A stretch of 36,595 nt of DNA from Candidatus Taenaricola geysiri. Lineage in GTDB: Bacteria > Omnitrophota > Gorgyraeia > Taenaricolales > Taenaricolaceae. The stretch covers positions 1 through 36,595 of the forward strand of contig PFGP01000125.1 in the NCBI GenBank assembly GCA_002781985.1, in the 5' to 3' direction. Positions within the stretch are counted from its first letter, which is position 1; every line of letters starts with the position of its first letter. Shown here piece after piece: positions 2,425-32,800 of the stretch. The notes below the pieces were generated by a model. The model did not search any database and had not been told where the DNA came from. It saw only the letters and a program-made list of their open reading frames with translations. The position numbers were made by a program, and so were the translations under genes.

Positions 2425-3885
2425 ATGGATTTTAAAGGCAAGGTTTTGATAATTGGTTTCGGATCAGTGGCAAGATGTACTCTTCCAATTCTTCTTAAAC
2501 ATATTGATATCCCGTGTAAAAATATTACGGTTATAGATTTCGCCGACAAGCGCGATGATCTGAAATCCTGGATAGAAAAAGGGGTGAAGTATTTTCAGAC
2601 AAGGATTACGCCCGGCAATCTGGCCGAGGAATTATCTAAACACGTTTCCAGCGGCGGGCTTATTATAGATTTGGCATGGAATATAAGCTGCGATGAAATA
2701 GTAACATGGTGCCATGACAATAATGTGCTTTATGCAAATACCTCTGTTGAAGAATGGGATCCGTATCGGGATATTGATAAAAAGGACCCGTATAAAAAGT
2801 CGCTTTATTTCCGCCAGATACTTTTGAGAAAAATGTTTTCAAAATTCAGCAGGCCTGCAACGACGTTTGTGGTAGATCACGGAGCAAACCCGGGCCTGAT
2901 TTCACATTTTACCAAAAAAGGCCTTGTTGATATAGCCGAAAAGGCGGTCAAGGACTCGGATACCGGCAAGAAAACACAAAAGGCGCTGGAGGATTTATTA
3001 AAACAGGGGCATTCAGACGAGAAATATGCGCGCCTTGCAATGGAATTGGGCGTTAAGGTTATACATTGCAGCGAACGCGATACCCAGATAACCGACAAGC
3101 CGAAAGAGGTGGATGAATTTGTCGGCACATGGTCTATAGAGGGTTTAAGGGAAGAGGGCACAGCACCAGCAGAGCTTGGATGGGGCACGCATGAGAAAAA
3201 GCTCCCACGTTACGCGCATGTGCCTAAAGAGGGCCCGAGAAACCAGATTTTTCTTTCCCAGATGGGGATGAATACATGGGTGCGTTCATGGGTGCCAAAT
3301 TTTGATATAATAGGTATGGTGATAAGGCATGCGGAGGCATTTAGTATTTCCAACAGGCTTACGGTATGGAAAGGCAAAAAAGCGGTTTACAGGCCAACCG
3401 TGCATTATGCTTACATGCCTTGTGATGAAACATTAGTTTCTTTGTATGAGCTCAGGGCCAAAAATTACCAGTTACAGCCCAAGCTGCGCATTATGAGCGA
3501 TGAAATAACAAAGGGCGAGGATATACTGGGCGCTCTTATTATGGGGCACAAATATAATTCCTGGTGGACAGGAAGCATATTGAGCATTGATGAGTCAAGA
3601 AAGATTGTTCCTCATCAGAATGCCACTACAATGCAGGTCGCGACAGGGATGGTTACGGCTGTTATGTGGATGATAGAAAATCCTCACAGGGGTTTTTGCC
3701 TTCCCGATGATTTACCCTATGACTACGTGTTGAAGATAGCAAAACCTTATCTGGGAAAGCTTGTTTCACAGGCGTCGGACTGGACGCCGCTTAAGAATTA
3801 CCGGATTTTTTTCAAGGAAAACCCCAGATCATACCTGGATGAGAAAAATATATGGTGTTTTGATAATTTCCTTTTCAGGGACTAA
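2425..3885 (+). CDS. hss: Homospermidine synthase
   Basis: 486 aa. The N-terminal Rossmann motif (IIGFGSVARCTLP) and the length match bacterial HSS (saccharopine-dehydrogenase-like). An ornithine decarboxylase gene follows 11 nt later. Confidence 0.8.
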   Translation: MDFKGKVLIIGFGSVARCTLPILLKHIDIPCKNITVIDFADKRDDLKSWIEKGVKYFQTRITPGNLAEELSKHVSSGGLIIDLAWNISCDEIVTWCHDNNVLYANTSVEEWDPYRDIDKKDPYKKSLYFRQILLRKMFSKFSRPATTFVVDHGANPGLISHFTKKGLVDIAEKAVKDSDTGKKTQKALEDLLKQGHSDEKYARLAMELGVKVIHCSERDTQITDKPKEVDEFVGTWSIEGLREEGTAPAELGWGTHEKKLPRYAHVPKEGPRNQIFLSQMGMNTWVRSWVPNFDIIGMVIRHAEAFSISNRLTVWKGKKAVYRPTVHYAYMPCDETLVSLYELRAKNYQLQPKLRIMSDEITKGEDILGALIMGHKYNSWWTGSILSIDESRKIVPHQNATTMQVATGMVTAVMWMIENPHRGFCLPDDLPYDYVLKIAKPYLGKLVSQASDWTPLKNYRIFFKENPRSYLDEKNIWCFDNFLFRD

Positions 3886-5122: not shown

Positions 5123-6097
5123 ATGCATTTATTTATAATAGCCATAACAATATTGATGGGCATAGCCGTTGGCTGGTCCATAGGGGCCAATGATGCTGCC
5201 AATTCTTTAGGGGTTGCCGTTGGTTCGCGCGTATTGACATTTCGCCAGGCTATCCTTTTAATATGCATATTCGGTTTTTTAGGGGCATATTTTAACGGGG
5301 CGCATGTTATAAAGACCGTAGGTAAAGGCATCGTGCCTTTGGATCAACTTGATAAAAATATAGCATTATATGTGGCTCTTGTGGCGTCTTTTGGCGCATG
5401 CGCGTGGGTAGCGCTTGCAACGCATTGGAAGATGCCTATTTCAACCAGTCATTCTATAGTAGGCGCTGTAGCAGGCGCAGGCCTTGCCGTACACGCGCCT
5501 ATAAGCTGGAAAGTGCTTTTCGATGTTTTTATGTGCTGGATCCTGACGCCTGTGGGCGCGGCAATTATGGGTTTTGTAATATGTATCATCGTTAAAAATA
5601 CATTTTACAGGATAGTGCCGCGAAGGTTCGCGCGCCCGATATTAGTGTTTCTTGTTATAACAAGCGGATGCTATGTTGCCTTTACATGGGGCGCAAATGA
5701 CGTTGCAAATTGCGTAGGCGTGATTTCAGGCGCAGGCATACTTTCCATAAACAGCAGTATTATTTTGGGCATAATGGCAATACTATTTGGAATAATTACA
5801 TTGGGCTATAAGGTTATACAGACAGTTGGTTCTGAAATAACCAACCTTGTGCCTGTTATGGCATTTTCAGCGCAGCTTGCAAGCGCGCTTAATGTTCATA
5901 TATATACTTTGTTTGGAATACCTGTTTCTACAAGCCATTCTATTGTAGGCGCAATATTTGGCGTAGGCATGGTAAGGGGCCTGCGTGTTTTGAATATAAA
6001 GATTCTAAAAAATATAATAATATCGTGGATAGCAACGCCGTTTGTTTCAGGAGTGGTGAGTTTTTCTGTTTTAAAGGGAATAATGTTGTTTAAATAG
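5123..6097 (+). CDS. pit: Inorganic phosphate transporter, PiT (PHO4) family
   Basis: 324 aa, multi-TM, with the duplicated GANDAANS / GANDVANC signature. Confidence 0.9.
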   Translation: MHLFIIAITILMGIAVGWSIGANDAANSLGVAVGSRVLTFRQAILLICIFGFLGAYFNGAHVIKTVGKGIVPLDQLDKNIALYVALVASFGACAWVALATHWKMPISTSHSIVGAVAGAGLAVHAPISWKVLFDVFMCWILTPVGAAIMGFVICIIVKNTFYRIVPRRFARPILVFLVITSGCYVAFTWGANDVANCVGVISGAGILSINSSIILGIMAILFGIITLGYKVIQTVGSEITNLVPVMAFSAQLASALNVHIYTLFGIPVSTSHSIVGAIFGVGMVRGLRVLNIKILKNIIISWIATPFVSGVVSFSVLKGIMLFK

Positions 6098-6206
6098 TCC
6101 CTCGCCGCTAAACGTGATTAGAGGCGGTTCGGGACAAATTTTTGCCGAACACGGCATCCCGTGAACGGGACAAATCGAGATAGCTAGAAAAATTTGGAGG
6201 CGTAAA
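6097..6206 (+). repeat. Two-hairpin intergenic leader element, copy 2 (long form with 27-nt insert)
   Basis: H1 at 6097-6135 overlaps the pit stop codon. The insert at 6144-6170 contains two mutually exclusive small hairpins. H2 is CAAATTTTT (6135-6143) paired with AAAAATTTG (6188-6196). GGAGG is at 6196-6200 and the ATG at 6207. Confidence 0.8.
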
Positions 6207-6875
6207 ATGAAAGAGATGAGAAATATTTTGGGATGGCTGGGCATGGCCGAGGAACACGCTATAATGCAGGATGCGCAAAAACACGTCGACGAAACCTATA
6301 AGACAGTCACGCATTTTTCAGACGCGGTAAACGCGTTTATAAAAGGCGATCTGAATGCAAAGACAGTAGCTATAGAGAAGACCGGTGAAAGCGAACACCT
6401 TGCCGATATATTGCGTTCAAAAATGGTAAGGGAACTTTCAGAAAGCCTTATAGCTCCGCCTGACAGGGAAGACTTTATGCATTTTGTAAATACGCTGGAT
6501 AAGATAGCTGACTGGACAAACGGTTCGGCAAGACTTTTAGGTTTCATTGAAGTAAAACTTTCGGAAGACATCCTGAAAAATATTTTTGTTTCTACTGAGT
6601 TGATCGTGACTTCCATAACAAGATTAAAAGAGGCGATACAGAGTATTATCAAAAATGATTTAAAAAAGGCGCTTACAGATTGTGAAGAAGTGGACCGTAT
6701 TGAACATAATGCCGATGATCAGAAAAGGATATTGATAGGATGTATAATACATGCCAAGCTTGACCCGCCGACATTGCTTTTGAGTTATCAGCTTGCCGAA
6801 TATTTAGAAGGTGTAACAGACAAGATAGAAGACGCGGCTGATTTTATAAAAGTAGTAGCTATAAGGTCCAAATAA
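6207..6875 (+). CDS. DUF47 / PhoU-like phosphate-transport-associated protein
   Basis: A 222-aa helical protein adjacent to PiT, which is the classic PiT-DUF47 gene pair. The assignment rests on context plus general sequence character. Confidence 0.7.
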   Translation: MKEMRNILGWLGMAEEHAIMQDAQKHVDETYKTVTHFSDAVNAFIKGDLNAKTVAIEKTGESEHLADILRSKMVRELSESLIAPPDREDFMHFVNTLDKIADWTNGSARLLGFIEVKLSEDILKNIFVSTELIVTSITRLKEAIQSIIKNDLKKALTDCEEVDRIEHNADDQKRILIGCIIHAKLDPPTLLLSYQLAEYLEGVTDKIEDAADFIKVVAIRSK

Positions 6876-8279: not shown

Positions 8280-9230
8280 ATGTTTTTTGAGTCTTTTAAG
8301 GTTACAGGCCTTGCCATAGGGCAGATAATCATACTCGGCGCAATAGGGTATGCGTTGGTAAAAGCAAATATACTGAAAGAAGAAAACTTAAATTTTTTAA
8401 GCAGGCTTGTTGTTGTGGTTACGTTACCGGCTTTGATATTCTGCCAGCTTATAAAGGATTTCAGTTTTGATGCATATCCCTACTGGTGGTTTTTTCCTGT
8501 TTTGAGCATTGTTATAACGGGGTTCGGGCTTTTTATCGGTCGGATATTCAGTTTATTTATAAAAGGCGAGCAGGCCAAAATACAATTTATGAGTTTGATA
8601 GGTTTTCAGAATGCAGGCTATATACCTCTTGTTTTAGCAGGAGCCATCTTGCCGGAAGCCATGGTTGGGACCATGCTGGTTTATATATTTTTATTTATGC
8701 TAGGATTTAATCTTGCCGTATGGTCTCTCGGCGTATATATGCTTACTTTTGAAAAATCCAGAAAATTTGATATGGCGAGTTTATTCAGCCCGCCTGTTAT
8801 AGCAACATTGTTCAGTCTTGTTTTTATATATCTTGGTTTTGCGAAATCAGTGCCGGATGTTTTATTTAGGCCGCTTAAAATGGTGGGTGAGTGCACTGTG
8901 CCAATGGCAATTTTTGTTGTCAGCGCAAATCTGGCATATGTAAAATTAAAAAATATAAGCATAAAAAACATGTCTCTTGTTATAGTTGCCAAGCTTATTG
9001 TGCTGCCTTTGGCGGGCATGCTGCTGGTGCTTAAATTGGGCCTGCCTCAGTTGATAGGCACTCTGATTATTATGCAGCTTGCTATGCCACCTGCCACGTC
9101 GCTGTCGGTTATAATACGCCATTATAAAAAGAAAGATCTTCTTATAAGCCACGGAATATTCTTCGGCCACATGGTGAGCCTTCTTGCCACGCCTATATTT
9201 TTAAGTCTATATTTCGTTTTAAGCCGTTAG
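8280..9230 (+). CDS. AEC (auxin-efflux-carrier-like) family permease
   Basis: 316 aa with about 9-10 TM helices and a general resemblance to AEC transporters. The start directly abuts the thiE stop. Confidence 0.6.
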   Translation: MFFESFKVTGLAIGQIIILGAIGYALVKANILKEENLNFLSRLVVVVTLPALIFCQLIKDFSFDAYPYWWFFPVLSIVITGFGLFIGRIFSLFIKGEQAKIQFMSLIGFQNAGYIPLVLAGAILPEAMVGTMLVYIFLFMLGFNLAVWSLGVYMLTFEKSRKFDMASLFSPPVIATLFSLVFIYLGFAKSVPDVLFRPLKMVGECTVPMAIFVVSANLAYVKLKNISIKNMSLVIVAKLIVLPLAGMLLVLKLGLPQLIGTLIIMQLAMPPATSLSVIIRHYKKKDLLISHGIFFGHMVSLLATPIFLSLYFVLSR

Positions 9231-9242
9231 GTGCCGCCGTTA

Positions 9243-9289
9243 GGTGCCAGGCACCGCATTTTAACATATTGTATTTAAAGGAGTTATAG
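9243..9289 (-). repeat. 47-bp palindrome-ended repeat, copy E (inverted), left flank of the RAYT gene
   Basis: GGTGCCAGGCACC (9243-9255), then GCATTTTAA, an 18-nt spacer, and GTTATAG (9283-9289). This is the reverse complement of the TTGTAAC-N18-TTAAAATGC-GGTGCCTGGCACC module with 5/7 matches in the inner heptamer. Confidence 0.75.
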
Positions 9290-9295
9290 CGCAAA

Positions 9296-9949
9296 ATGCC
9301 CAGAAATCCTCGTTTATGTTTTGAAGGTGCATTTTATCATATAACAAGCCGTGGCGACAATAAAGAGAAGATATTTTATAATGAATGGGATAGAAAAGCG
9401 ATGTTTAGTTTATTGAAAGAAGCAAAGAGCAAGTTTTGCTTTAGGTTGCACGCTTATACGTTGATGCAAAATCATTTTCATTTTGTCATTGAAACTTCTG
9501 AGAAAGGGACGATATCGGAAATAATGCATCATATAAATGGAAAATATACAAAACATTTTAATTCTATGCACAAACGCAGCGGCCATCTTTTTCAGGGAAG
9601 ATTTCATGGAGTTTTAATAGACAAAGATAATTATCTTTTGGAAGTAACCAGATATGTACATCTAAATCCTGTCAGGGTAGGGCTAGTTGAACATCCTGAA
9701 GAATACAAGTGGAGCAGTTATAGGCATTATATTGGTTTAGCTAGAAATGATTTCGTGGATAAGGAGTTGATTTTGGATATGATTTCGCCTGACAGATCTA
9801 ATCAGGTTACTATGTATTTAAATTTTACAAAAGAAGGTTTAAAATTAGATTTCAAGAAGTTTAAAGATGGTTTATACAAGGGTGCATTTTCACCAAAAAA
9901 GAAACTAATACCTAATGAGCCAAAATATCAAGAAATCGTTTGTAACTAA
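9296..9949 (+). CDS. REP-associated tyrosine transposase (RAYT) / IS200-like Y1 HUH transposase (COG1943 type)
   Basis: 217 aa with the HUH motif HFHFVIE, then RYVHLNPVRVGLV and YKWSSY (catalytic Tyr region). Confidence 0.85.
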   Translation: MPRNPRLCFEGAFYHITSRGDNKEKIFYNEWDRKAMFSLLKEAKSKFCFRLHAYTLMQNHFHFVIETSEKGTISEIMHHINGKYTKHFNSMHKRSGHLFQGRFHGVLIDKDNYLLEVTRYVHLNPVRVGLVEHPEEYKWSSYRHYIGLARNDFVDKELILDMISPDRSNQVTMYLNFTKEGLKLDFKKFKDGLYKGAFSPKKKLIPNEPKYQEIVCN

Positions 9950-9986
9950 TTCAAAACAAACAACTTATAATGCGGTGCCTGGCACC
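9940..9986 (+). repeat. 47-bp palindrome-ended repeat, copy A, right flank of the RAYT gene
   Basis: TTGTAAC (9940-9946, containing part of the RAYT stop), an 18-nt spacer, TTATAATGC, then GGTGCCTGGCACC (9974-9986). Confidence 0.8.
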
Positions 9987-11888
9987 GTGGGTGGGGAGTT
10001 GAACGCCCAGCAGCTTGAGGTTGTAAGGACTATTGATGGGCCGGTGCTAGTGGTTGCGGGCGCTGGTAGCGGCAAGACCCGCGTAATAGAATACAGGGTG
10101 CTCCATTTTATTCAGAGTGGAATTCAGCCGGAAAATATCCTCTTATTAACTTTTACAAAAAAAGCCGCGCAGCAGATGTTAAGCCGCGCCTCAAGGCATG
10201 ATGTAAGGTGCGGCCTTGTTCACGGCGGCACATTTCATTCTTTTGCCTATAGGATTTTAAAAAAATATTCCGTCCAGTCAGGGTTGGGCGAGTTTTTTAT
10301 AATTGACGAGTCAGACGCTGAAGAGGCCATAAATATATGCTCTGCGAAATTTGACACTAACGGTAAAGATAAGAGATTTCCGCGCAAGGATACATTGCGT
10401 AAGGTGTTCAGCATGGTTGTGAATAAAAATATGAGCGTTGAGGATATTTTGGATAAGGAATACCCTCAATTTTTAAAATATAGTTTTCAGGTAGAAGCGA
10501 TAAGCCAGGAATATAAAAAGTATAAAAAAAGCAAGGGGTACTTAGACTATGACGACCTGCTTGTTTATTTAAGGAATCTGCTTGAGAAAAATAATGACAT
10601 AAGAAAAGAATTGTCAGAGCAGTATAAATATATAATGGTTGACGAATATCAGGATACCAATAAATTGCAGTCGGATATAACATACTTTCTGGCAAGGGAT
10701 CATAAAAATATAATGATAGTAGGCGATGACGCCCAGAGCATATACGGATTCAGGGGCGCATCGCATGAAAATATAATGGATTTTCCAGAAAGATTTCCCG
10801 GATGTAAGATTATAAAATTAGAAACAAATTACCGCAGCCACCAGCCGATACTTGATGTTGCCAATGCGGTGTTGAAGAATATGAAAAACAAATATTCAAA
10901 AGAGCTCTATTCTTACAATAAGGAGCATGGCGACAGGCCTGAGCTTTTATTTTTTACAAATACAAATGCTGAAGCGGGTTGGATGGCGCGCAAGGTAAAA
11001 TCTATGGCAGCTGAGGGCATGGATTTAAAATATCAGGCAGTGCTGTTTCGGTATGCATATATATCCATTCCGCTGCAGCTTGAGTTAAACAGACTAAGAA
11101 TACCGTTTCAGTTATTCGGGGGAATGAAATTTTATGAGACCGCGCATGTGAAGGATGTTTTGGCGCACCTGAAGGCGCTTGTTAATTTTAAAGATGAGCT
11201 TTCATGGCTAAGGATGCTTACTTTGCTTGAAGGCATAGGCCCAAAAACAGCGTCGGGCATAGTGAAAGATATTAACAATGCCAATAATTTTGACGAAGCA
11301 GTGAAAAGTATTTTGTGTTCAGCAAATAGAAAGAAATCGTATTCAACAGCTCTTTTTGAGCTGGTAAATTTTCTAAAAACCGCGCAAGCTGCAGAAGGCA
11401 GCGTGTCAGAGCAGTTTGAGGCATTGCTGGAATATTATAATCCTATCATGCAGTATAAATTTGATGACGCCAGAGATAGGATGAATGATTTAAAGGTGAT
11501 AAAAAGGATATCTGCAGATTATAAGTCAACTCCGGACTTTTTGGCTGATTTTGCCCTTGATTCGCCTGATAAAGGCGCGTTCAGCGGCCATGAAAATATG
11601 CTGACGCTTTCCACCATACATTCAGCCAAGGGCCTTGAGTGGGACGTGGTTTTTTTGATGGGCCTGGTGGAGGGAGTTTTGCCTGTAAGTTTTTCGCTTG
11701 ATGACGAGGATTCGATAGAGGAGGAGCACAGGCTTTTTTACGTGGGCATTACGCGCGCCAAAAAACATCTGTTTCTTTGCGCGCATTATGAAGGTACGAT
11801 GATGGGCCAGAGCCAGTTTAACAGAATATCGCGGTTTGTGGATTCGGAAAATGTTTTGTCAAAGGTTAAGCAAGAAGCTGTATATTAA
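9987..11888 (+). CDS. UvrD/PcrA/Rep-family ATP-dependent DNA helicase
   Basis: Motifs AGAGSGKT, VDEYQDTN, TIHSAKGLEWDVVF and YVGITRAK are present. The ORF is open from the ATG at 9915, but that stretch overlaps the RAYT gene and reads through repeat copy A. The GTG at 9987 or the TTG at 9999 sits just before the conserved LNAQQ..V N-terminus. Confidence 0.88.
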   Translation: MGGELNAQQLEVVRTIDGPVLVVAGAGSGKTRVIEYRVLHFIQSGIQPENILLLTFTKKAAQQMLSRASRHDVRCGLVHGGTFHSFAYRILKKYSVQSGLGEFFIIDESDAEEAINICSAKFDTNGKDKRFPRKDTLRKVFSMVVNKNMSVEDILDKEYPQFLKYSFQVEAISQEYKKYKKSKGYLDYDDLLVYLRNLLEKNNDIRKELSEQYKYIMVDEYQDTNKLQSDITYFLARDHKNIMIVGDDAQSIYGFRGASHENIMDFPERFPGCKIIKLETNYRSHQPILDVANAVLKNMKNKYSKELYSYNKEHGDRPELLFFTNTNAEAGWMARKVKSMAAEGMDLKYQAVLFRYAYISIPLQLELNRLRIPFQLFGGMKFYETAHVKDVLAHLKALVNFKDELSWLRMLTLLEGIGPKTASGIVKDINNANNFDEAVKSILCSANRKKSYSTALFELVNFLKTAQAAEGSVSEQFEALLEYYNPIMQYKFDDARDRMNDLKVIKRISADYKSTPDFLADFALDSPDKGAFSGHENMLTLSTIHSAKGLEWDVVFLMGLVEGVLPVSFSLDDEDSIEEEHRLFYVGITRAKKHLFLCAHYEGTMMGQSQFNRISRFVDSENVLSKVKQEAVY

Positions 11889-11977
11889 GGAAGTCCCTCG
11901 CCGCAAGTTGTGATAGCTGGCGGCTCGGGACGATTTTTCGGACAAAAATATTCTACTGGAAAAATCGGAGGTGAAAT
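11889..11977 (+). repeat. Two-hairpin intergenic leader element, copy 3
   Basis: GGAAG, then H1 at 11893-11931 (GTCCC/TC/GCCGC ... GCGGC/TC/GGGAC). H2 is CGATTTTT (11931-11938) paired with AAAAATCG (11960-11967). GGAGG is at 11967-11971 and the ATG at 11978. Confidence 0.8.
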
Positions 11978-12307: not shown

Positions 12308-12337
12308 CCCTATGCCAAAATTGGCGTGGGGTTTTTT
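12308..12337 (+). terminator. Riboswitch expression-platform terminator
   Basis: CCCTATGCC (12308-12316) pairs with GGCGTGGGG (12323-12331, two G.U pairs), followed by TTTTTT. Confidence 0.8.
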
Positions 12338-12358
12338 ATTAAGACATCCTTTAAAGAG

Positions 12359-13147
12359 GTGAGCGATGCAAAGATAAGCAGGGCGATATTAAGCGAATTT
12401 AACAGTTGGTTTAGTGATTACATTGTTTCAGATGTAATTATTGTAGGCGCAGGCCCGAGCGGGTTGGTTGCAGCAAGGGATTTAGCAAAACAAGGCATTA
12501 AGGTGCTTGTGATAGAGGTTAATAATTATCTTGGTGGCGGTTTCTGGATAGGCGGATATCTTATGAATACGCTTACGTTTCGCTCACCTGCCGAAGAGAT
12601 GCTTGATGAATTAAATATACCTTATAAGAAGACTTTAGACGGCTTGTTAACGGCAGATGGGCCCAATGCATGTTCCAAGCTTATCTCAGCGGCCTGCGAT
12701 GCGGGCGCGAGGATTTTAAACATGACGAAGTTTGATGACGTGGTTTTGAGAGATAAAAGGGTGGAAGGCATTGTTATTAATTGGGCTCCTGTCTCAGCGC
12801 TTCCCAGGCAGATTTCATGTGTTGATCCGATTTCAATAGAGGCAAAGGTTGTTATTGATGCAACCGGGCATGATGCGTATGTTGCAAGGAGCCTGGAGAA
12901 AAAAGGTTTGCTTAAACTTAAAGGCACAGGGGCCATGGATGCCAATACATCAGAGGATTTAATTGTTAATAATACTGGCGAGGTTTACCCTGGATTAATA
13001 GTGGCCGGCATGGCAGTTTCAGCTGTATGGGGTATCCCGCGTATGGGCCCGACATTTGCCGGTATGCTTTATTCGGGTAGAAAGGCGGCAGAGATCACTT
13101 CGCGTATTGTTTTGAAAAACGAGATTCCGGTAGAAAATCAATTGTAA
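12359..13147 (+). CDS. thi4: Thiazole synthase, Thi4 type (archaeal/eukaryotic-like)
   Basis: ISRAIL...DVIIVGAGPSGL (FAD/NAD Rossmann) and VIDATGHDA motifs are present. The start is uncertain. The listed GTG at 12326 lies inside the terminator stem, so the in-frame GTG at 12359 is used here. The well-placed ATG at 12366 is out of frame. Confidence 0.8.
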   Translation: MSDAKISRAILSEFNSWFSDYIVSDVIIVGAGPSGLVAARDLAKQGIKVLVIEVNNYLGGGFWIGGYLMNTLTFRSPAEEMLDELNIPYKKTLDGLLTADGPNACSKLISAACDAGARILNMTKFDDVVLRDKRVEGIVINWAPVSALPRQISCVDPISIEAKVVIDATGHDAYVARSLEKKGLLKLKGTGAMDANTSEDLIVNNTGEVYPGLIVAGMAVSAVWGIPRMGPTFAGMLYSGRKAAEITSRIVLKNEIPVENQL

Positions 13148-13188
13148 CATATTGAAAATAGACAACTTAAAACGCGGTGCCTGGCACC
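13142..13188 (+). repeat. 47-bp palindrome-ended repeat, copy B (solo)
   Basis: TTGTAAC (13142-13148, containing the thi4 stop), an 18-nt spacer, TTAAAACGC, then GGTGCCTGGCACC (13176-13188). Confidence 0.8.
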
Positions 13189-13191
13189 GGT

Positions 13192-13219
13192 AAAAAAGCC
13201 GTTGACAAACGGCTTTTTT
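13192..13219. terminator. Symmetric (bidirectional-type) terminator hairpin overlapping the marR -35 element
   Basis: AAAAAAGCCGTT, a GACA loop, then AACGGCTTTTTT. Confidence 0.65.
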
Positions 13220-13229
13220 ATGGTATAAT
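13202..13229 (+). promoter_or_regulatory. Sigma-70-type promoter of the marR-OMF-MFP-RND operon
   Basis: TTGACA (13202-13207), a 16-nt spacer, then an extended -10 TGgTATAAT (TATAAT at 13224-13229). Confidence 0.65.
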
Positions 13230-13237
13230 TGTTAATG

Positions 13238-19127: not shown

Positions 19128-19140
19128 TTATAAAGATGAG

Positions 19141-19226
19141 AAAGTCCCTCGCGACTAAACGAGATAGCTGGTCACTCGGGACAATTTTTTAAGATGTGAT
19201 AACTGGAAAAATTGGAGGTGATTTTT
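19141..19226 (+). repeat. Two-hairpin intergenic leader element, copy 4 (lies downstream of a promoter, so in a 5' UTR)
   Basis: H1 is at 19144-19182 (inner helix GCGAC:GTCAC, one mismatch). H2 is CAATTTTT (19182-19189) paired with AAAAATTG (19207-19214). GGAGG is at 19214-19218 and the ATG at 19227. Confidence 0.8.
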
Positions 19227-21048: not shown

Positions 21049-21074
21049 TAAAGCCGATTTTAGAATATTTTGGT

Positions 21075-21121
21075 TTGTAACTTGTTTAATTTCAATGGGT
21101 TAAAATGCGGTGCCTGGCACC
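21075..21121 (+). repeat. 47-bp palindrome-ended repeat, copy C (solo)
   Basis: TTGTAAC (21075-21081), an 18-nt spacer, TTAAAATGC, then GGTGCCTGGCACC (21109-21121). Confidence 0.8.
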
Positions 21122-21139
21122 GGGAAAGAGAGATAGAAA

Positions 21140-21396: not shown

Positions 21397-22695
21397 ATGT
21401 TTTGCGATCAGTGTGAACAAGCCGCAGGCGGCACAGGATGCGCGTCAAAAATCGGGACATGCGGGAAAAATGAAGATATACACAGCCTGCAGGATACATT
21501 AATATATGGTTTAAAGGGCATTGCCGCGTATGCGTATCATGCAAGAGAGTTTGGGGCAAGAGATGAAGAGGTTGATGCCTTTATGCACGAGGCGTTGTTT
21601 ACTACGTTGACCAACGTCAGTTTTGATTTAAATCAGCACCTTGATATGGCGCTGCGTTGCGGTAGGATTAATCTTAAAATTATGGAATTACTTAACAATG
21701 CGCATACGAAGGCCTTTGGAAATCCTGTGCCAACAATAGTTGAAATAGTCACAAAGAAAGGCCCAGGTATATTAGTTACAGGCCATGACCTTTTGGCGCT
21801 GGAGAAACTTTTGAAACAGGCAGAACCTGAAGGCGTTAATATTTATACTCACGGTGAAATGCTGCCTGCTCACGGTTATCCGGGATTAAAAAAATTTAAG
21901 AATCTCGTAGGTAATTACGGTGGGGCATGGCAGGATCAGAAGGATGAGTTTAAATATTTTAGCGGCCCTATTTTGATTACGACAAATTGTGTGCAGATAC
22001 CGCATAAGGATACATACCTTGACAGGCTTTTCACTATGGGTATTACAGGTGTTCCCGGAGCAAAGCATATAACAGAAATGGATTTCAGCCAGATTATAAA
22101 AATGGCAAAATCACTGCCGCCTTTACTTGATACTGCAGGCACAAAGGTATCTACAGGTTTTCATTATACAGCTGTTCTTGGGCTTGCTGATAAAATTAAA
22201 GCTGCTGTTACATCAGGCAAGATCAAGCATTTTTTCTTAGTAGGCGGATGTGATGGGGCAAAGACCGGCAGAAGTTATTATACAGAGTTTGCCAAGATGG
22301 TGCCAAAGGATTGCGTTATTGTAACGCTTGCCTGCGGAAAATACAGGTTTAACAAATTGGATTTTGGCGATATAGATGGTATACCAAGGCTTATTGATGT
22401 TGGCCAATGCAATGACGCGTATTCGGCGATACAAATAGCCCTTGCTTTAGCAAAACTTTTTGATACAGATGTAAACAAACTGCCGCTTAGCTTTGTGCTT
22501 TCATGGTATGAGCAGAAAGCAGTTGCCATATTGCTTACATTGTTGTATCTTGGTATAAAGGGTATGTATATAGGTCCGACGCCGCCCGCATTTTTTACAA
22601 AAAATGTTTTACAGGTGGTGCAGGATAAGTTCGACCTAAGGCTTATAGGAAACCCAAGAAAAGACTTAGAAGAGATGTTGAGTAGGAAAAGATGA
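21397..22695 (+). CDS. hcp: Hybrid-cluster protein (hydroxylamine reductase), short form
   Basis: The N-terminal MFCDQCEQAAGGTGC cysteine motif is present. The 432-aa length indicates the short class. Confidence 0.88.
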   Translation: MFCDQCEQAAGGTGCASKIGTCGKNEDIHSLQDTLIYGLKGIAAYAYHAREFGARDEEVDAFMHEALFTTLTNVSFDLNQHLDMALRCGRINLKIMELLNNAHTKAFGNPVPTIVEIVTKKGPGILVTGHDLLALEKLLKQAEPEGVNIYTHGEMLPAHGYPGLKKFKNLVGNYGGAWQDQKDEFKYFSGPILITTNCVQIPHKDTYLDRLFTMGITGVPGAKHITEMDFSQIIKMAKSLPPLLDTAGTKVSTGFHYTAVLGLADKIKAAVTSGKIKHFFLVGGCDGAKTGRSYYTEFAKMVPKDCVIVTLACGKYRFNKLDFGDIDGIPRLIDVGQCNDAYSAIQIALALAKLFDTDVNKLPLSFVLSWYEQKAVAILLTLLYLGIKGMYIGPTPPAFFTKNVLQVVQDKFDLRLIGNPRKDLEEMLSRKR

Positions 22696-22780
22696 GTCCC
22701 TCGTCACTAAACGTGCTATCTGGTGACTCGGGACAAATTTTACAAATCGAGATAGCTGGTAAAATTTGGAGGATTTAACC
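22696..22780 (+). repeat. Two-hairpin intergenic leader element, copy 6 (cleanest exemplar)
   Basis: H1 at 22696-22734 is GTCCC/TC/GTCAC, a 15-nt loop, then GTGAC/TC/GGGAC. H2 is CAAATTTTA (22734-22742) paired with TAAAATTTG (22760-22768). GGAGG is at 22768-22772 and the ATG at 22781. Confidence 0.85.
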
Positions 22781-27650: not shown

Positions 27651-27730
27651 GGAAGTTTTTCGTCCCTCGCCACTAAGTGAGATAGCTGGTGGCTCGGGAC
27701 AATTTTTACAAATGAGAGAGGAGGTAAAAA
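27651..27730 (+). repeat. Two-hairpin intergenic leader element, copy 7 (SD in the H2 loop, start codon in the H2 stem)
   Basis: GGAAG, TTTTC, then H1 at 27662-27700 (inner helix GCCAC:GTGGC). H2 is CAATTTTTA (27700-27708) paired with TAAAAATTG (27725-27733). GGAGG at 27720-27724 lies in the loop. The TTG start at 27731 lies in the 3' arm. Confidence 0.75.
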
Positions 27731-28460: not shown

Positions 28461-30530
28461 TTGACCAGGCGTGTATTTTTCTTTTTAATCTTTTTGTTGG
28501 CAATAACGCTACCGGCCTTTGCCAGGCCTTCAAGTTCATCTGATTTTCTTATCCTGCTTGATATTACCGCGCAAAATAACCCGGATTCAGCCAGAATAAC
28601 CATATATACAAATAAATTTCTTGAATATGTAGATTACGAGCTTCAGGATGGCTCGGGCGGCATTGTTTTTGACCCTACAGAACCTTTATATGTAAATATA
28701 GAAGGCCTGAATTTTGATAAAAGCGGCATTATCAGCGGAATGAAATTTGCCAAAAGCGCTATCAAGCAGGATGATTTACCCGAGGTGTTGAAGGCGGGTT
28801 TTTACCCGTTGGATTATCTGGTTATAAATTTAAAACTTAAGTCCGGTTACAGGATATCGCAGCGGGCGAATATGATTGTTTTGGATATAGGAAATACTGC
28901 GATGCCGCTGCCTTCAGAATTTGTGCCAAGTTTTACATTAAAGCCTGCGCCTGTGCCAAAAAAAGAGGTTGCTTCAGGAGCAGGTTTGCTGCCGGAAGAT
29001 ATTGCAGCGGAATTTATAAAAACAAAACAAGGCAAAAAACAAGATAAGAAAAAAGAAAAGAAATCAAAAAAGAAACAAGAGCCGTTGGTTGAAAAAGTGT
29101 CCTTGCCGCTCCCGGCTTTAAGCCCGCAAGAGGCCGTGGCAATGGATTTTAAGCGCCTTAGGGAGGAGATTTTATCCAGGTCGCTTTCCGGCAAACCATC
29201 TTTAAAATTGCCGCAAGGCAGAAATGTACTTGGCTTTAATCAGTGCGTTGAAATAGGAACCACTAATTTTCTGCCGCTTGTTATTGCCGAAGAGGAAATG
29301 AGGCTTGGCGATATGAAAATCAATGAAGCCAAGCGCGGGATTTATCCTACAGCCACCGCAAAATATACTACAACAGACGGAGAAACGCTTGGGGTTGAGT
29401 TTACCGAAAAATCTTATGGCATGCAGGTTGAGCAGCCTCTTTATTACGGAGGCCGGCTTAAATTAACATTAAAACAGGCCCAGATAAACCGTCAGGTTGC
29501 CCAGTCGAAATTCGACAAAGCTGAAGCCGATGTGGTGTCAAAGATTACAGAGGCATTTTACGGCCTTGCTACAGCGCAACTTAATCTCGAGGACCAGAAG
29601 GAATTATTCGTAAAATCAAAAGAGATGCTTGCGCTTGCCGAGAAAAAATATAATCAGGACCTTACAACGAAACTGGAGCTGTTAAATGTCCAATCGCAAT
29701 GCAACCAGATAGATTATCAGCTTGCTGTTGCAGCCAAGGATGTTGATATTGCAAAGATAAGCCTTCTTCAGGCAATGGGCACAGACCCTCAGGCTGACAT
29801 TCGAGCCGATATGCCGCTTGATTACGCCGAGAATATTATAGATATTAACAAATGCCTTTTACTTGCATACCAGAACAGGCCTGAGTTGCATATGAATGAA
29901 CTTCTGCGGGAGGCCGCGGAATATGAAGAGAAGATAGCCAGGTCAAAGGATGATTTTAAGGTTGATTTTACAGGATTTGTCGGCCAGTCGGGCGGCGCGT
30001 ACAAAACAGAACCGTTAAATATGGGCAGTGACTGGTATATGGGATTTAAGGCGTCAAAGCCATGGCTTGGCAATACGGGTTCTTATAATTATACGCAGAA
30101 TAAAACAAGCCCTAAATTAGGCCAAAGCACAAGGACAGGAGGTACTAGCCAATCTCTTGAATTCGGCATACTGAATAATATGACGGCTTATTCTGAAAAG
30201 CAGTCCGCCTTGATAAGCAAGCTTAAAGCGGAGAATGAACTTGTTGAAATAGAAAAGGCGATAAACACCGAGGTGCGCGAAACCTACAGCAGCTATGAAA
30301 AAGCTATTATGCAGATACAGAATACGCAGGAGAAGATAAGGTTCAGGCAGGAAGAACTTAATACATTGAAGGCGCAGTCGGAAATAAACGAGGCCGCCTT
30401 GTCGCAGGTGCTTGACGCGATGGTAAAGCTTAATGATGAAAAGGCATTATACCACCAGGCTATAGCAAGCTACAAGACCGCTTTGGCGAATTTAAACAAG
30501 GCAGTGGGGCTGATAGGGTATTTCAACTAA
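28461..30530 (+). CDS. Outer-membrane efflux protein (TolC/OMF family) with a ~270-aa N-terminal extension
   Basis: 689 aa. It has a signal peptide (LPAFA/RP), a beta-rich N-terminal domain (tentatively AMIN-like), a Lys-rich linker (KQGKKQDKKKEKKSKKKQE), then two OEP repeats. Confidence 0.8.
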   Translation: MTRRVFFFLIFLLAITLPAFARPSSSSDFLILLDITAQNNPDSARITIYTNKFLEYVDYELQDGSGGIVFDPTEPLYVNIEGLNFDKSGIISGMKFAKSAIKQDDLPEVLKAGFYPLDYLVINLKLKSGYRISQRANMIVLDIGNTAMPLPSEFVPSFTLKPAPVPKKEVASGAGLLPEDIAAEFIKTKQGKKQDKKKEKKSKKKQEPLVEKVSLPLPALSPQEAVAMDFKRLREEILSRSLSGKPSLKLPQGRNVLGFNQCVEIGTTNFLPLVIAEEEMRLGDMKINEAKRGIYPTATAKYTTTDGETLGVEFTEKSYGMQVEQPLYYGGRLKLTLKQAQINRQVAQSKFDKAEADVVSKITEAFYGLATAQLNLEDQKELFVKSKEMLALAEKKYNQDLTTKLELLNVQSQCNQIDYQLAVAAKDVDIAKISLLQAMGTDPQADIRADMPLDYAENIIDINKCLLLAYQNRPELHMNELLREAAEYEEKIARSKDDFKVDFTGFVGQSGGAYKTEPLNMGSDWYMGFKASKPWLGNTGSYNYTQNKTSPKLGQSTRTGGTSQSLEFGILNNMTAYSEKQSALISKLKAENELVEIEKAINTEVRETYSSYEKAIMQIQNTQEKIRFRQEELNTLKAQSEINEAALSQVLDAMVKLNDEKALYHQAIASYKTALANLNKAVGLIGYFN

Positions 30531-30640
30531 TTCCCTCGCCGCGCCTCGTGATAAGAGGCGGCTCGGGATAAAATTTTGCCGAACACGGCATCCCGTGAAC
30601 GGGACAAATCGAGATTACTGGAAAATTTCAGAGGTGAAAA
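30531..30640 (+). repeat. Two-hairpin intergenic leader element, copy 8 (long form with 27-nt insert)
   Basis: H1 is at 30531-30569 with a degenerate outer helix (TTCCC...GGGAT). The insert at 30578-30605 lies in a 42-nt block identical to copy 2. The SD is GAGG at 30631-30634 and the ATG is at 30641. Confidence 0.75.
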
Positions 30641-31954
30641 ATGGCCGCATTGATAAAAAAAAGATTTAAGGGTTGGGGGGTTGTGCTTATTGTTATTGCC
30701 GCTCTGGTTATTATGTTTGTTGTTTACGCGGCGCCGATAGCAGAGCATTTATGGAAAGTTTTTCCAGGTATCGCAAATTTTTCTTTTGTTTCCAATCTTT
30801 TAAAAGACAGGGTAATACAAAAGTCAGGCGCTCAGTCCGCAGGCCAAGAGCAGGAAGGCGGCGCAGCCGGAGCCGAAGAAAAACAGAGGCCGGTGTCAGT
30901 TATAGTATTTAAAGCGGTAAAAAGCGATTTTGAAGATACTCTTCTAGCCATGGGCACAATAAAGGGCGTCAGAGAAATAGAGCTCAGGTTCGAGGCAAAC
31001 GGCGTTATAGACGCCATTAATTTCAGAGAAGGCGATTTTATAAAAAAAGGCGATGTAGTTGCGGTTTTGAACCAACAGGACGCCATATTAAAACTGGAAT
31101 ATTCGCAATCAAAGCTTAAAACAAGCCAGACGCAGATGCTTACGGCCAAGAAAAAACTTGAGATACATCAGAAGTTATACGAGTTGGGCACCATTATTAA
31201 ATCAAAACTCGAAGAAGTGGCTCTTGAATATGAAAACACAAAAAGCCAGGTGACATCCGCTGAAAAAGAGGTGGCGTTTGCCAAACAGGAAGTGCAAAAG
31301 GCTTATATATCTTCTCCTATTGACGGTATTATCGGCGAGCGCGAGGCAGAGGCAGGCGAATTTGTTACGTCAAACACAAAGATAGCAACTGTTATAGATG
31401 TGTCGAGTGTTTATGCTGAAGTCGGAATTATTGAAAAGGATTTGCAGAAGATAGCCCTGGATATAGAGGCAACAGCTACTGTAGACGCGTATCCTGATGT
31501 GGAATTTAAAGGAAAGATCGATAATATACTTCCTACAATAGAAGGAAAATCAAGAACAATAACCTGCAGGATTAAAATAGATAATCAGGATGGCATGCTT
31601 TTGCCGGGGATGTTTGTGAGGGCGACTATTTTTGTATTTGGCCAGAAAGATGTAATAGTGCTGCCAACCCCGAATAATACACTGCGCGATACGGATAATG
31701 ACGGAAAATTTGATTCTGTTTTTGTGGTTGATCAGGATAACGTCGCGCATCTTAAGCCTGTGGAAATAAGTTATCTTACTACTGATAACGCGGTGGTTGT
31801 TTCGGGGCTTGAAGAGGGCGAGCAGGTTGTTACAGAGGCAAGGGCTGAGCTTAGCGATGGCGCGCCGGTTGAAGTTTTGGAGACGCAGGAGGGGCTTAAG
31901 CCTCAGGAAGAGCTTCCGGGAGCAGGCGGAGAAAAAGAGATGGTGATACAGTAG
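30641..31954 (+). CDS. RND/ABC-type efflux periplasmic adaptor (MFP, HlyD_D23-like)
   Basis: 437 aa with an N-terminal TM anchor, a coiled-coil hairpin and barrel-sandwich and beta-barrel segments (YISSPIDGIIGER, LPGMFVRATI). Confidence 0.85.
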   Translation: MAALIKKRFKGWGVVLIVIAALVIMFVVYAAPIAEHLWKVFPGIANFSFVSNLLKDRVIQKSGAQSAGQEQEGGAAGAEEKQRPVSVIVFKAVKSDFEDTLLAMGTIKGVREIELRFEANGVIDAINFREGDFIKKGDVVAVLNQQDAILKLEYSQSKLKTSQTQMLTAKKKLEIHQKLYELGTIIKSKLEEVALEYENTKSQVTSAEKEVAFAKQEVQKAYISSPIDGIIGEREAEAGEFVTSNTKIATVIDVSSVYAEVGIIEKDLQKIALDIEATATVDAYPDVEFKGKIDNILPTIEGKSRTITCRIKIDNQDGMLLPGMFVRATIFVFGQKDVIVLPTPNNTLRDTDNDGKFDSVFVVDQDNVAHLKPVEISYLTTDNAVVVSGLEEGEQVVTEARAELSDGAPVEVLETQEGLKPQEELPGAGGEKEMVIQ

Positions 31955-32052
31955 CGTAGCTGGAAAAATTTGCCCCTCGCCGCAAAACGCGATTAGAAGC
32001 GGCTCGGGACAATTTTACTAAACGAGATAGCAGGTAAAATCGGAGGTGTAAT
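31955..32052 (+). repeat. Two-hairpin intergenic leader element, copy 9
   Basis: A partial module-2-like TAGCTGGAAAAATTT is followed by H1 at 31972-32010 (GCCCC/TC/GCCGC ... GCGGC/TC/GGGAC). H2 is at 32010-32017 paired with 32035-32042. GGAGG is at 32042-32046 and the ATG at 32053. Confidence 0.75.
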
Positions 32053-32730
32053 ATGGAAGAGAAAAAGCAGGCAGCACAGCAGCCTTCACCAAAAAAGAGA
32101 AACGATTCAGTTATTTTAATTATATTGGCTGGGATATTAATAGTTATTTTTGCTTTTATGGTTGCTAAATTGTTGAATACAAGCAAGGCCTCAAAGACAG
32201 AATCGAAAACCGTGCAAGCTTCCGAACCTGCTGTGCAAGAAAAAGTGATGCCTTATCCTGAAGAGCCAGTATCTATGCCTGATGCAGATATAACCGAAGG
32301 CGAGGCTGATATGGAGCAGCTGCCTGCAGAATACGCAAAGGCGCCAAGCGATGCGGAAGGTTTTTTTCAGACAGGAGAAGATCTTTATTACAAAGGGGAT
32401 TTTGATGCGGCAATAGAGAGTTTTAAAAAGGCAATCGAGCTTGACTCGCAATATGCTGACGCGTATTGCGAGATGGGCGTTTCATTTATGGAAAAAGCCG
32501 ATTGGGATACTGCTATAGCCCAGCTTAACAAGTGTATAGAAATAAACCCGAATCAACCAAAGGCGCAGTATGCAATAGCGGTTAGCTACGCCAGAAAACC
32601 AAGCCCTGATGTTGCGGCTGCAAGAGAGCATTTTGAGATATCAAAAAAATTAGGTTTTGTTTATCCGCAATGGTTTGAGGATTTTTTAAAGCGCCTTGAA
32701 GCAGGCGAGCGCTTCCCAGGTCAAAACTAG
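32053..32730 (+). CDS. Membrane-anchored TPR-repeat protein
   Basis: 225 aa with one N-terminal TM helix, an acidic linker and about three TPR units (AIESFKKAIELDSQYADAYCEMG...AIAQLNKCIEINPNQPKAQYAIA). Confidence 0.75.
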   Translation: MEEKKQAAQQPSPKKRNDSVILIILAGILIVIFAFMVAKLLNTSKASKTESKTVQASEPAVQEKVMPYPEEPVSMPDADITEGEADMEQLPAEYAKAPSDAEGFFQTGEDLYYKGDFDAAIESFKKAIELDSQYADAYCEMGVSFMEKADWDTAIAQLNKCIEINPNQPKAQYAIAVSYARKPSPDVAAAREHFEISKKLGFVYPQWFEDFLKRLEAGERFPGQN

Positions 32731-32740
32731 TAGAAATGCG

Positions 32741-32787
32741 TTGTAACATATTGTTATATAATGAGTTAAAACGTGGTGCCTGGCACC
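32741..32787 (+). repeat. 47-bp palindrome-ended repeat, copy D (solo)
   Basis: TTGTAAC (32741-32747), an 18-nt spacer, TTAAAACGT, then GGTGCCTGGCACC (32775-32787). It ends 13 nt before the RND ATG. Confidence 0.8.
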
Positions 32788-32800
32788 GAGAAAAAAAGAT

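Follow-up and report, generated by a model that had tools for sequence, protein, structure and literature searches.

The question raised by this locus is what a small gene for a Y1-type HUH protein in Candidatus Taenaricola geysiri (Omnitrophota; contig PFGP01000125.1, assembly GCA_002781985.1), flanked by the genes of an AEC-family permease and a UvrD-like helicase, has to do with the two inverted copies of a palindrome-ended repeat that enclose it. The window, that is the whole stretch of 36,595 nucleotides (nt) analysed, holds three further copies of the same repeat, called modules below. It appears probable that the gene encodes a resident REP-associated tyrosine transposase (RAYT; REP, repetitive extragenic palindrome) of subclass 2.1 (group 1, TIRYT type), which in these uncultured Omnitrophota is accompanied by its cognate repeat family. 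As to kind, it is a subclass 2.1 RAYT/TIRYT of the short form, whose terminal inverted repeats (TIR) make up a new palindrome-ended family; systems of this kind are already known. An original prediction, made from the letters of the window, had read the locus as a RAYT bracketed by inverted cognate repeats with solo copies nearby; this core is supported by the bracketing of all six orthologues compared.

The protein contains the Pfam domain Y1_Tnp (PF01797; E 7e-15, 55.6 bits against a cut-off of 23), and the NCBIfam equivalog model NF047646, "REP-associated tyrosine transposase", recognised it with 91 bits (cut-off 80); with the IS200 model it reached 24 bits and so fell short of the cut-off of 55. 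When the family profile was compared with the PDB, a single match was obtained, the E. coli TnpAREP structure 4ER8 (E 1.3e-4). The AlphaFold model of the protein (mean pLDDT 84) gave the same structure, 4er8_A, as the best Foldseek match (E 8.1e-9, target-normalised TM-score 0.72), followed by IS200/IS605 TnpA structures. In the profile alignment RYVHLNP stands opposite DYIYINP, and H60/H62, Y120 and N124 stand opposite H59/H61, Y115 and N119. In E. coli TnpAREP, Y115 is the catalytic residue, and H59, H61 and N119 are among the ligands of the active-site metal (PMC3479197). Since RYVHLNP aligns with the motif holding Y115, the catalytic residue here is Y120, followed by N124-P125, while the HUH motif is H60-F-H62; an alignment of 21 homologues shows no variation at H60, H62, Y120, N124 and P125. 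The RAYT-type Y1 HUH identity predicted for the protein is thus borne out by the Pfam and NF047646 scores and by the structural match, and family, fold and catalytic residues are established. The catalytic tyrosine was found on alignment, though not in the implied YKWSSY, a stretch that represents the subclass 2.1 tail motif "SS".

Assignment to the subclass follows from the motif set. The motifs NHFH, FQ (in LFQGRF), YVHLNP (in RYVHLNP) and SS (in KWSSY; W138-S-S-Y) equal the TnpAREP subclass 2.1 signature, NH[YF]H, FQ, Y[IV]HLNP and an SS tail (Table 1, PMC6006769), so that the class comparison proposed with the original prediction leads, by motif set, to subclass 2.1 or Bertels group 1. A C-terminal helix-turn-helix (HTH) domain (Bac_DnaA_C, HTH_23 or HTH_28) is absent, Pfam giving Y1_Tnp only. 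No DnaA_C domain follows in the window protein or in its nine nearest relatives, all of which terminate around residue 200-228, and the nearest homologues beyond the set sharing 60% identity are 45-50% identical, about 320 residues long, and combine Y1 with Bac_DnaA_C (PF08299).

The flanks of the gene form an inverted repeat (I3) that is 77% complementary over 44 nt. The arms of this TIR measure 44-66 nt, and both were detected by R1, a covariance model built from an ungapped alignment of 23 distinct modules (the five copies of the window and solo copies from other loci, the flanks of five other orthologues being left out). Scanned with R1, the window gave exactly five copies; the left module scored 67.5 bits on the minus strand, and the remaining four, all plus-strand, ranged over 66.6-75.3 bits. 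In the 22 nt adjoining the palindrome the left and right flanks match at 21 positions. The consensus of the 23 modules is AATTTnnnTTGTAACTTATTTAAAnTCAAnAAnTTAAAACGC-GGTGCCTGGCACC-G, and inward of the palindrome some 50 nt are conserved. The TAAC, TT and AA positions 30-45 nt from it are invariant or nearly so, although they lie outside all search patterns, and the repeat is therefore about 60 nt long and not 47. The 47-bp module of the original prediction is therefore real in its bracket and palindromes but too short. The sequence features that it listed, palindromes and inverted flanks among them, were all recovered at the positions it gave, but the heptamer it had placed on the stop codon, TTGTAAC (9940-9946), immediately precedes that codon.

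Only the palindrome of the module folds (a stem of 5-7 bp, a 3-nt loop, about -4 to -7 kcal/mol), the other 45 nt or so being conserved linearly. RNAalifold likewise returned a 5-bp hairpin only, without covariation, because the sequence of the palindrome never varies. A long-range helix of the AT-rich 5' part with TTAAAAYGC was tried and rejected, since the 47% of positions that paired were no better than shuffled or slid controls. In the module at 3094-3158 of locus L007 the centre of the palindrome, read on the module-sense strand, is A instead of T, which makes the central base unreliable as a marker of orientation. The inner part of the left module contains a Shine-Dalgarno-like element, AAGGAG, and extends to the RAYT start codon. 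Left modules are the most conserved (left to left, 0.77), which fits a role as carrier of the Shine-Dalgarno region of the Y1 gene; the left module of the window shares 85% DNA identity with the orthologous flank of L001.

That the bracket accompanies the gene was seen in the six orthologues (the window, L001 and L050-L053), which are 60-75% identical and occupy five different gene neighbourhoods. All six have a left module on the minus strand and a right module on the plus strand (R1, 36-69 bits), and the ten flanks of the five further orthologues were all detected in the expected orientations with 36-68 bits. Each of these five reads (G)GTGCCAGGCACC, about 40 nt of module, start codon and gene, and then a module ending in GGTGCCTGGCACC. 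The neighbours are response regulators and a GMP synthase in L050, an HD-domain protein in L051, a thioredoxin and a radical SAM protein in L052 and a PilZ protein in L053. As the neighbourhoods differ and no similarity was found past the outer edges of the palindromes, the bracket belongs to the Y1 gene, and its conservation is established.

The gene has remained long at its locus. L001 keeps the gene order of the window, Mem_trans - Y1 - UvrD, and its Y1 protein is 71% identical to that of the window, compared with 68-85% for six neighbouring genes; since synteny is kept and Y1 is as diverged as its neighbours, long residence is established. This one syntenic orthologue suggests the vertical inheritance typical of RAYTs and not of a recently inserted insertion sequence (IS). 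The Y1 sequence cluster occurs at one locus type only, and no second copy of the unit was found in the retrieved loci, among which there is no complete genome.

The modules are also dispersed away from the gene. From shuffles the 13-bp palindrome would be expected 0.03 times, but the window has it five times; apart from the flanks it lies at 13176, 21109 and 32775, and the three solo copies there (family D3) have some 50 nt upstream of it in common with the right-hand copy. The exact 22-nt pattern was searched in the GTDB representative genomes, from which the species of the window is missing, and in metagenomic contigs, where at least 40 stretches carry it. Including those of the window, at least 28 distinct sites were obtained, about 22 with the full module, so that the three solo copies originally predicted are confirmed as part of a wider family. 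The metagenomic count is a lower bound because contigs with an exact match, such as Ga0100392_1002890 (= L005) and Ga0100391_1000791 (= L061), were not returned. The spacers that hold the modules are short and intergenic, and the modules may point either way relative to the flanking genes; no strand bias relative to GC skew was found (13 sites in one orientation, 11 in the other). Module copies have remained full length and well conserved (60-76 bits), and their dispersal is established. The site at 21109 is identical in five further strain contigs, while 74-79% orthologues of the gene upstream of it are followed by another gene and have no module there; at L013 and L034 an orthologous module site is retained between related organisms. 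R1 gave no module in other Omnitrophota loci that lack this Y1 clade (33.8 kb scanned). A phage origin was rejected, as none of the viral contigs carries the pattern. The names borne by homologues of the permease and of a ferredoxin likewise put the window in Candidatus Omnitrophota.

A further peculiarity is the tandem duplication at the upstream end. Each 13-nt unit GCCGTTAGGTGCC joins 7 nt of flank to an outer half of the palindrome; it is the second unit that supplies this half in the actual left palindrome, and the permease TAG falls in the first. The original prediction of GTTAGGTGCC x2 (9226-9248) was right about the duplication and its overlap with the permease stop, but unit and extent are to be corrected as in the table. 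In L005 as in the window the module-sense strand has GGTGCCT/GGCACCTAACGGC/GGCACCTAACGGC, the slashes marking unit borders, and L004, L006 and L011, independent assemblies of 99%-identical strains, have an extra duplication of the first 17 nt (L004, 9907-9947). L001 (9922-9947) has GTCACCTAATAAA x2, L052 (about 1520-1560) repeats the 13-nt and then 17-nt steps in another context and flank, and the solo site L026 has a duplicated unit of 11 nt whose register includes the palindrome centre. The five centre-anchored duplications (13, 13, 13+17, 13+17 and 11 nt) lie in unrelated flank sequences; they extend outward from the dyad centre without microhomology at the unit ends and, at RAYT units, are confined to the upstream end in three of the six lineages. 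Other palindrome-side duplications, of 21, 21 and 43 nt, are not anchored at the centre. Overall, strain-level tandem duplications cluster at the palindromes, solo sites L026, L020, L036 and L047 included. The polymorphic, centre-anchored 13- and 17-nt duplications, which have recurred in independent lineages, are a new detail.

E. coli TnpAREP cuts TGCC/TGAT (slash, cut), and a nick-extend-rejoin process has been proposed for the amplification of bacterial interspersed mosaic elements (BIME) (PMC3333891). It is tempting to speculate, though we regard it as doubtful, that the duplications are scars of Y1 action in vivo, in which a nick in the loop at the palindrome centre, a short fixed-length priming extension of the 3'-OH and resealing could have produced the 13-nt and then the 17-nt step. 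If true, subclass 2.1 would be seen to have a Rep-like mode, with nicking in the loop, and a molecular ruler, and the duplications might serve as a natural read-out of the cleavage site. To our knowledge subclass 2.1 is the least understood RAYT subclass, and we know of no substrate or cleavage site for it.

By analogy with E. coli TnpAREP and IS608 TnpA, the Y1 enzyme would bind the hairpin and adjacent bases on single-stranded DNA. Y120 would nick the strand, with a metal held by H60, H62 and N124, a 5'-phosphotyrosine link would be formed, and the strands would be rejoined. Acting in trans, the enzyme may spread or maintain the modules, its own gene remaining in place and passing on by vertical inheritance, and the left module would presumably double as the translation start signals of Y1.

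Several observations weigh against a resident RAYT that acts on a cognate repeat family. The mobility of the modules is itself a proposal from sequence and analogy. No empty site or other presence/absence polymorphism, such as the original prediction had proposed to look for with the 744-bp unit, was found in the loci compared; permease orthologues of distant Omnitrophota, examined in this search, have Mem_trans followed by SmpB, an arrangement that does not bear on the question, and apart from these and the 21109 site the retrieved loci offer no orthologous overlap. Concerted evolution of left and right modules was not seen in the similarity comparison, L001 excepted: left and right modules within one genome are 0.70 alike and modules between genomes 0.71, and the sole sign of coupled change is that both palindromes of L001 read GGTGCCTGTCACC, with the same change in both outer halves. 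Second copies beyond the one that recruited each locus are few, and by extrapolation the copy number per genome may be roughly tens, far below that of classical REPs, which have more than 100; holding three solo copies around Y1 in 36 kb, the window is denser than the extrapolated average. REPIN-type doublets (close inverted REP pairs), which had also been proposed as a check, are missing, no close inverted pair being present among the 28 sites. In GTDB the 22-nt pattern was found at three sites of one genome, a metagenome-assembled genome labelled Planctomycetia. The palindrome centre reads TGCC-T/GGC, so that the duplication anchor CT/G is one nt off the C/T cut of TnpAREP. Finally, many solo copies lie 9-30 nt upstream of start codons, compatible with a regulatory role in the host.

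Because of this last position, and because in two lineages (the window and L001) the right palindrome is directly followed by the UvrD start, the main alternative is that the modules are host regulatory sites, a promoter-like TTGTAAC/TTAAAAT pair with a palindromic operator for a dimeric regulator, and that Y1 merely lies between two of them. TTGTAA and TTAAAA/TATAAT do resemble -35 and -10 hexamers, the left flank in direct sense (D10) reads TTTTAAC-N18-TTATAG 6 nt before the RAYT ATG, and it is the left flanks that are best conserved. However, the hexamers are 19-20 nt apart, and a sigma-70 scan calls none of the modules, whereas the genome uses a canonical TTGACA-16-TATAAT promoter at 13202-13229. 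The copy at 13176, between the thi4 stop and a terminator, is not the promoter of the downstream gene, since both the terminator and this separate consensus promoter come after it. With respect to the gene downstream, roughly every second site is inverted; the bracket accompanies Y1 in five unrelated neighbourhoods, with the palindromes as its exact limits; and the modules are absent from the other Omnitrophota loci. A sigma-54 promoter (TGGCAC-N5-TTGC) was also considered and rejected by inspection, no -12 element following the palindrome on either strand. A regulatory origin of the modules is therefore regarded as unlikely.

We see little likelihood, too, that the solo modules are inert decay products or structural sites, such as weak bidirectional terminators or insulators, on which Y1 no longer acts. 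The hairpin on the antisense strand, with GCRTTTTAA after it, is called terminator-like, a copy on each side would shield Y1 from read-through from both directions, and solo copies are identical across strains, with orthologous sites kept between related organisms (L013, L034). On the other hand, the catalytic residues are invariant in 21 homologues, the modules have stayed full length and well conserved, the strain-level duplication polymorphisms cluster at the palindromes, and the hairpin is weak. That the 744-bp unit is an active autonomous IS of the IS200/IS605 type, recently inserted between the permease and helicase genes, is highly improbable, for although it has a Y1_Tnp domain, inverted ends with small hairpins, different neighbourhoods across genomes and a duplication at one end, this reading is excluded by the failed IS200 score, by the Y---NP motif of class 2 in place of the Y---Q of class 1, and by an old synteny in which the orthologue is as diverged as its neighbours, and the Y1 cluster occupies one locus type with no second copy in any retrieved locus, while the duplication is one-ended with a variable unit number. 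IS200/IS605 elements generate no target duplications.

The RAYT with its cognate modules, which remains the preferred reading, is set among the other features of the window in the table.

Features of the window discussed in the text, with positions counted from its first nucleotide
Feature	Position	Strand	R1 or Rfam score	Remarks
AEC-family permease gene	8280-9230			Pfam Mem_trans; stop codon TAG 9228-9230
Tandem GCCGTTAGGTGCC x2	9223-9248	+		13-nt unit; overlaps permease stop TAG 9228-9230
Left module	9239-9304	-	67.5 bits, E 1.8e-9	inverted
Left palindrome GGTGCCAGGCACC	9243-9255			perfect, 13 bp, outward-facing
Gene for RAYT-type Y1 HUH enzyme, 217 residues	9296-9949	+		stop codon TAA 9947-9949
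Right module	9925-9990	+	69.0 bits	direct
Right palindrome GGTGCCTGGCACC	9974-9986			perfect, 13 bp, outward-facing
UvrD-like helicase gene	from 9987			likely GTG start; directly abuts right palindrome
Thiamine pyrophosphate (TPP) riboswitch RF00059	12196-12304		66 bits	upstream of thi4-like gene 12326-13147
Solo module	13127-13192	+	70.3 bits	begins on thi4 stop; terminator hairpin and consensus sigma-70 promoter follow
Terminator-like hairpin AAAAAAGCCGTTGACAAACGGCTTTTTT overlapping sigma-70 promoter	13191-13231			upstream of MarR-family gene
Solo module	21060-21125	+	75.3 bits	between 4Fe-4S protein gene and NifU-like gene; palindrome ends 18 nt before ATG 21140
Solo module	32726-32791	+	66.6 bits	between open reading frames of 225 and 1246 residues; palindrome ends 13 nt before ATG 32801
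Second intergenic repeat	6092-6142, 11888-11938, 19139-19189, 22691-22741, 27657-27707, 30526-30576, 31967-32017			variants at 2323 and 19542

The probable start of the helicase touches the right palindrome in both syntenic lineages, as GTG 9987 in the window and ATG 10687 in L001. A longer open reading frame listed for the helicase, from 9915, reads through the right module and yields the peptide NAVPGT, and in L052 the Y1 reading frame itself runs through its right module to give AVPGT. For annotation it is of consequence that the modules overlap stop codons and start regions (the thi4 stop, the UvrD start), and read-through of this kind produces spurious extensions with an AVPGT peptide. 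Rfam has no family for the modules, its sole match in the window being the TPP riboswitch. The promoter at 13202-13229 has the perfect sigma-70 consensus with a TG extension.

A second, more abundant intergenic repeat was also noted in the window. It consists of GTCCCTCGCCGC, a loop of about 15 nt (consensus AAACGWGATAGCTG) and GCGGCTCGGGAC, followed by a T-run; the stretches 6098-6209 and 30532-30643 are 86% alike over 112 nt. At 6092 and 11888, the two copies checked, it begins at the stop codon of a plus-strand gene, and it often precedes another small hairpin and a GGAGGTG ribosome-binding site. It resembles a terminator whose loop has been conserved, has no match in Rfam and is not adjacent to the Y1 gene.

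Among known systems, the IS200/IS605 TnpA proteins (IS608, ISDra2) share with the window protein the Y1 HUH fold, small hairpins near the ends and a presumed single-strand chemistry. They differ in that the window protein fails the IS200 cut-off and has the class 2 motif Y---NP in place of the class 1 Y---Q, and in that the Y1 unit is probably not multicopy and its syntenic orthologue points to long residence at one locus.

Closer is E. coli TnpAREP (RayT/YafM, with REP/BIME; 4ER8), the best structural match, with the same HUH and Y---NP site and its H, H, Y and N aligned, and with a gene flanked by inverted copies of its own repeat; that gene is single-copy and vertically inherited, as the Y1 gene probably is. 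The palindrome centre TGCC-TG, moreover, resembles the iREP cleavage site TGCC/TGAT. Sequence identity, however, is only 16%, and the metal ligand H123 of TnpAREP is replaced by V128, the family consensus being usually Ala. The module lacks the GTAG tag and the long, bulged, imperfect hairpin of the E. coli REP, its copies number tens (by extrapolation) against hundreds, and BIME or REPIN arrays are absent. In the Bertels-Rainey model the REPIN doublet is said to be the mobile unit. The classical tag, 5' GTAG or CGTC beside an imperfect hairpin of 20-40 nt, was not found in the modules and, since inverted doublets are missing too, the module is not a classical REP or REPIN. Against classical GTAG REPs the repeat is indeed unusually long and bipartite, as had been predicted, but long TIRs have already been described around RAYT-like genes (PMC3733652).

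The closest likeness is to TIRtrons or TIRYTs, RAYT-like genes with long TIRs that form moderately abundant families, some of the TIRs containing self-complementary tracts (Di Nocera et al. 2013, PMC3733652). Quentin et al. 2018 equate TIRYTs with TnpAREP subclass 2.1, although they describe the link to TIRs as "to be confirmed", and report no REP-like sequences beside subclass 2.1 genes in complete genomes (PMC6006769). In the present case the motif set is the same, a long TIR bracket stands in place of GTAG REP hairpins, the TIR is likewise a moderately abundant dispersed family, and the gene probably has a low copy number. The next homologues of the window protein (45-50% identity) are, moreover, of the typical subclass 2.1.2 form. 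The RAYT group scheme reportedly goes back to Bertels et al. 2017. Subclass 2.1 corresponds to its group 1 (PMC6006769).

Differences from the described TIRYTs concern both protein and repeat. All described members carry the C-terminal DnaA_C/HTH region that the 217-residue window protein lacks. Its TIR ends in the perfect 13-bp palindrome GGTGCCWGGCACC, and GGGGWSAS, which occurs in most but not all described TIRYT TIRs, is absent, the terminus GGTGCCAG matching it at six of eight positions. Two paralogous Y1 genes, met by chance in the metagenomic loci, carry other TIRs, beginning GGGGTCAGG in L047 (40% identity) and GGGGACGG in L042 (37%). In L047 (11609-12652) the TIR is TAAGGGGTCAGGTCTCAATTTTCAACAT, where GGGGTCAG fits GGGGWSAS, and the end of the contig (14467) holds a third copy; in L042 (64-891) it is AAGGGGACGGTTCTATTTATATTGA, GGGGACGG being close to that motif. 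The left TIR of L042 is tandemly duplicated with a period of 45 nt. As each paralogue has its own TIR, the type of repeat follows the protein clade.

Among RAYT groups subclass 2.1 (group 1) is the largest, and its link to repeats, weak so far, is clear here in one short-form clade, where six orthologues, sharp outer borders, solo copies and strain-level rearrangements at the palindrome point to a cognate repeat. The module offers a compact candidate substrate of about 60 nt for studying how TIRYT-type enzymes recognise and cut DNA. The host phylum, Omnitrophota, goes unmentioned in the one survey searched for the name (PMC6006769), and REP/RAYT-like systems are here extended to it.

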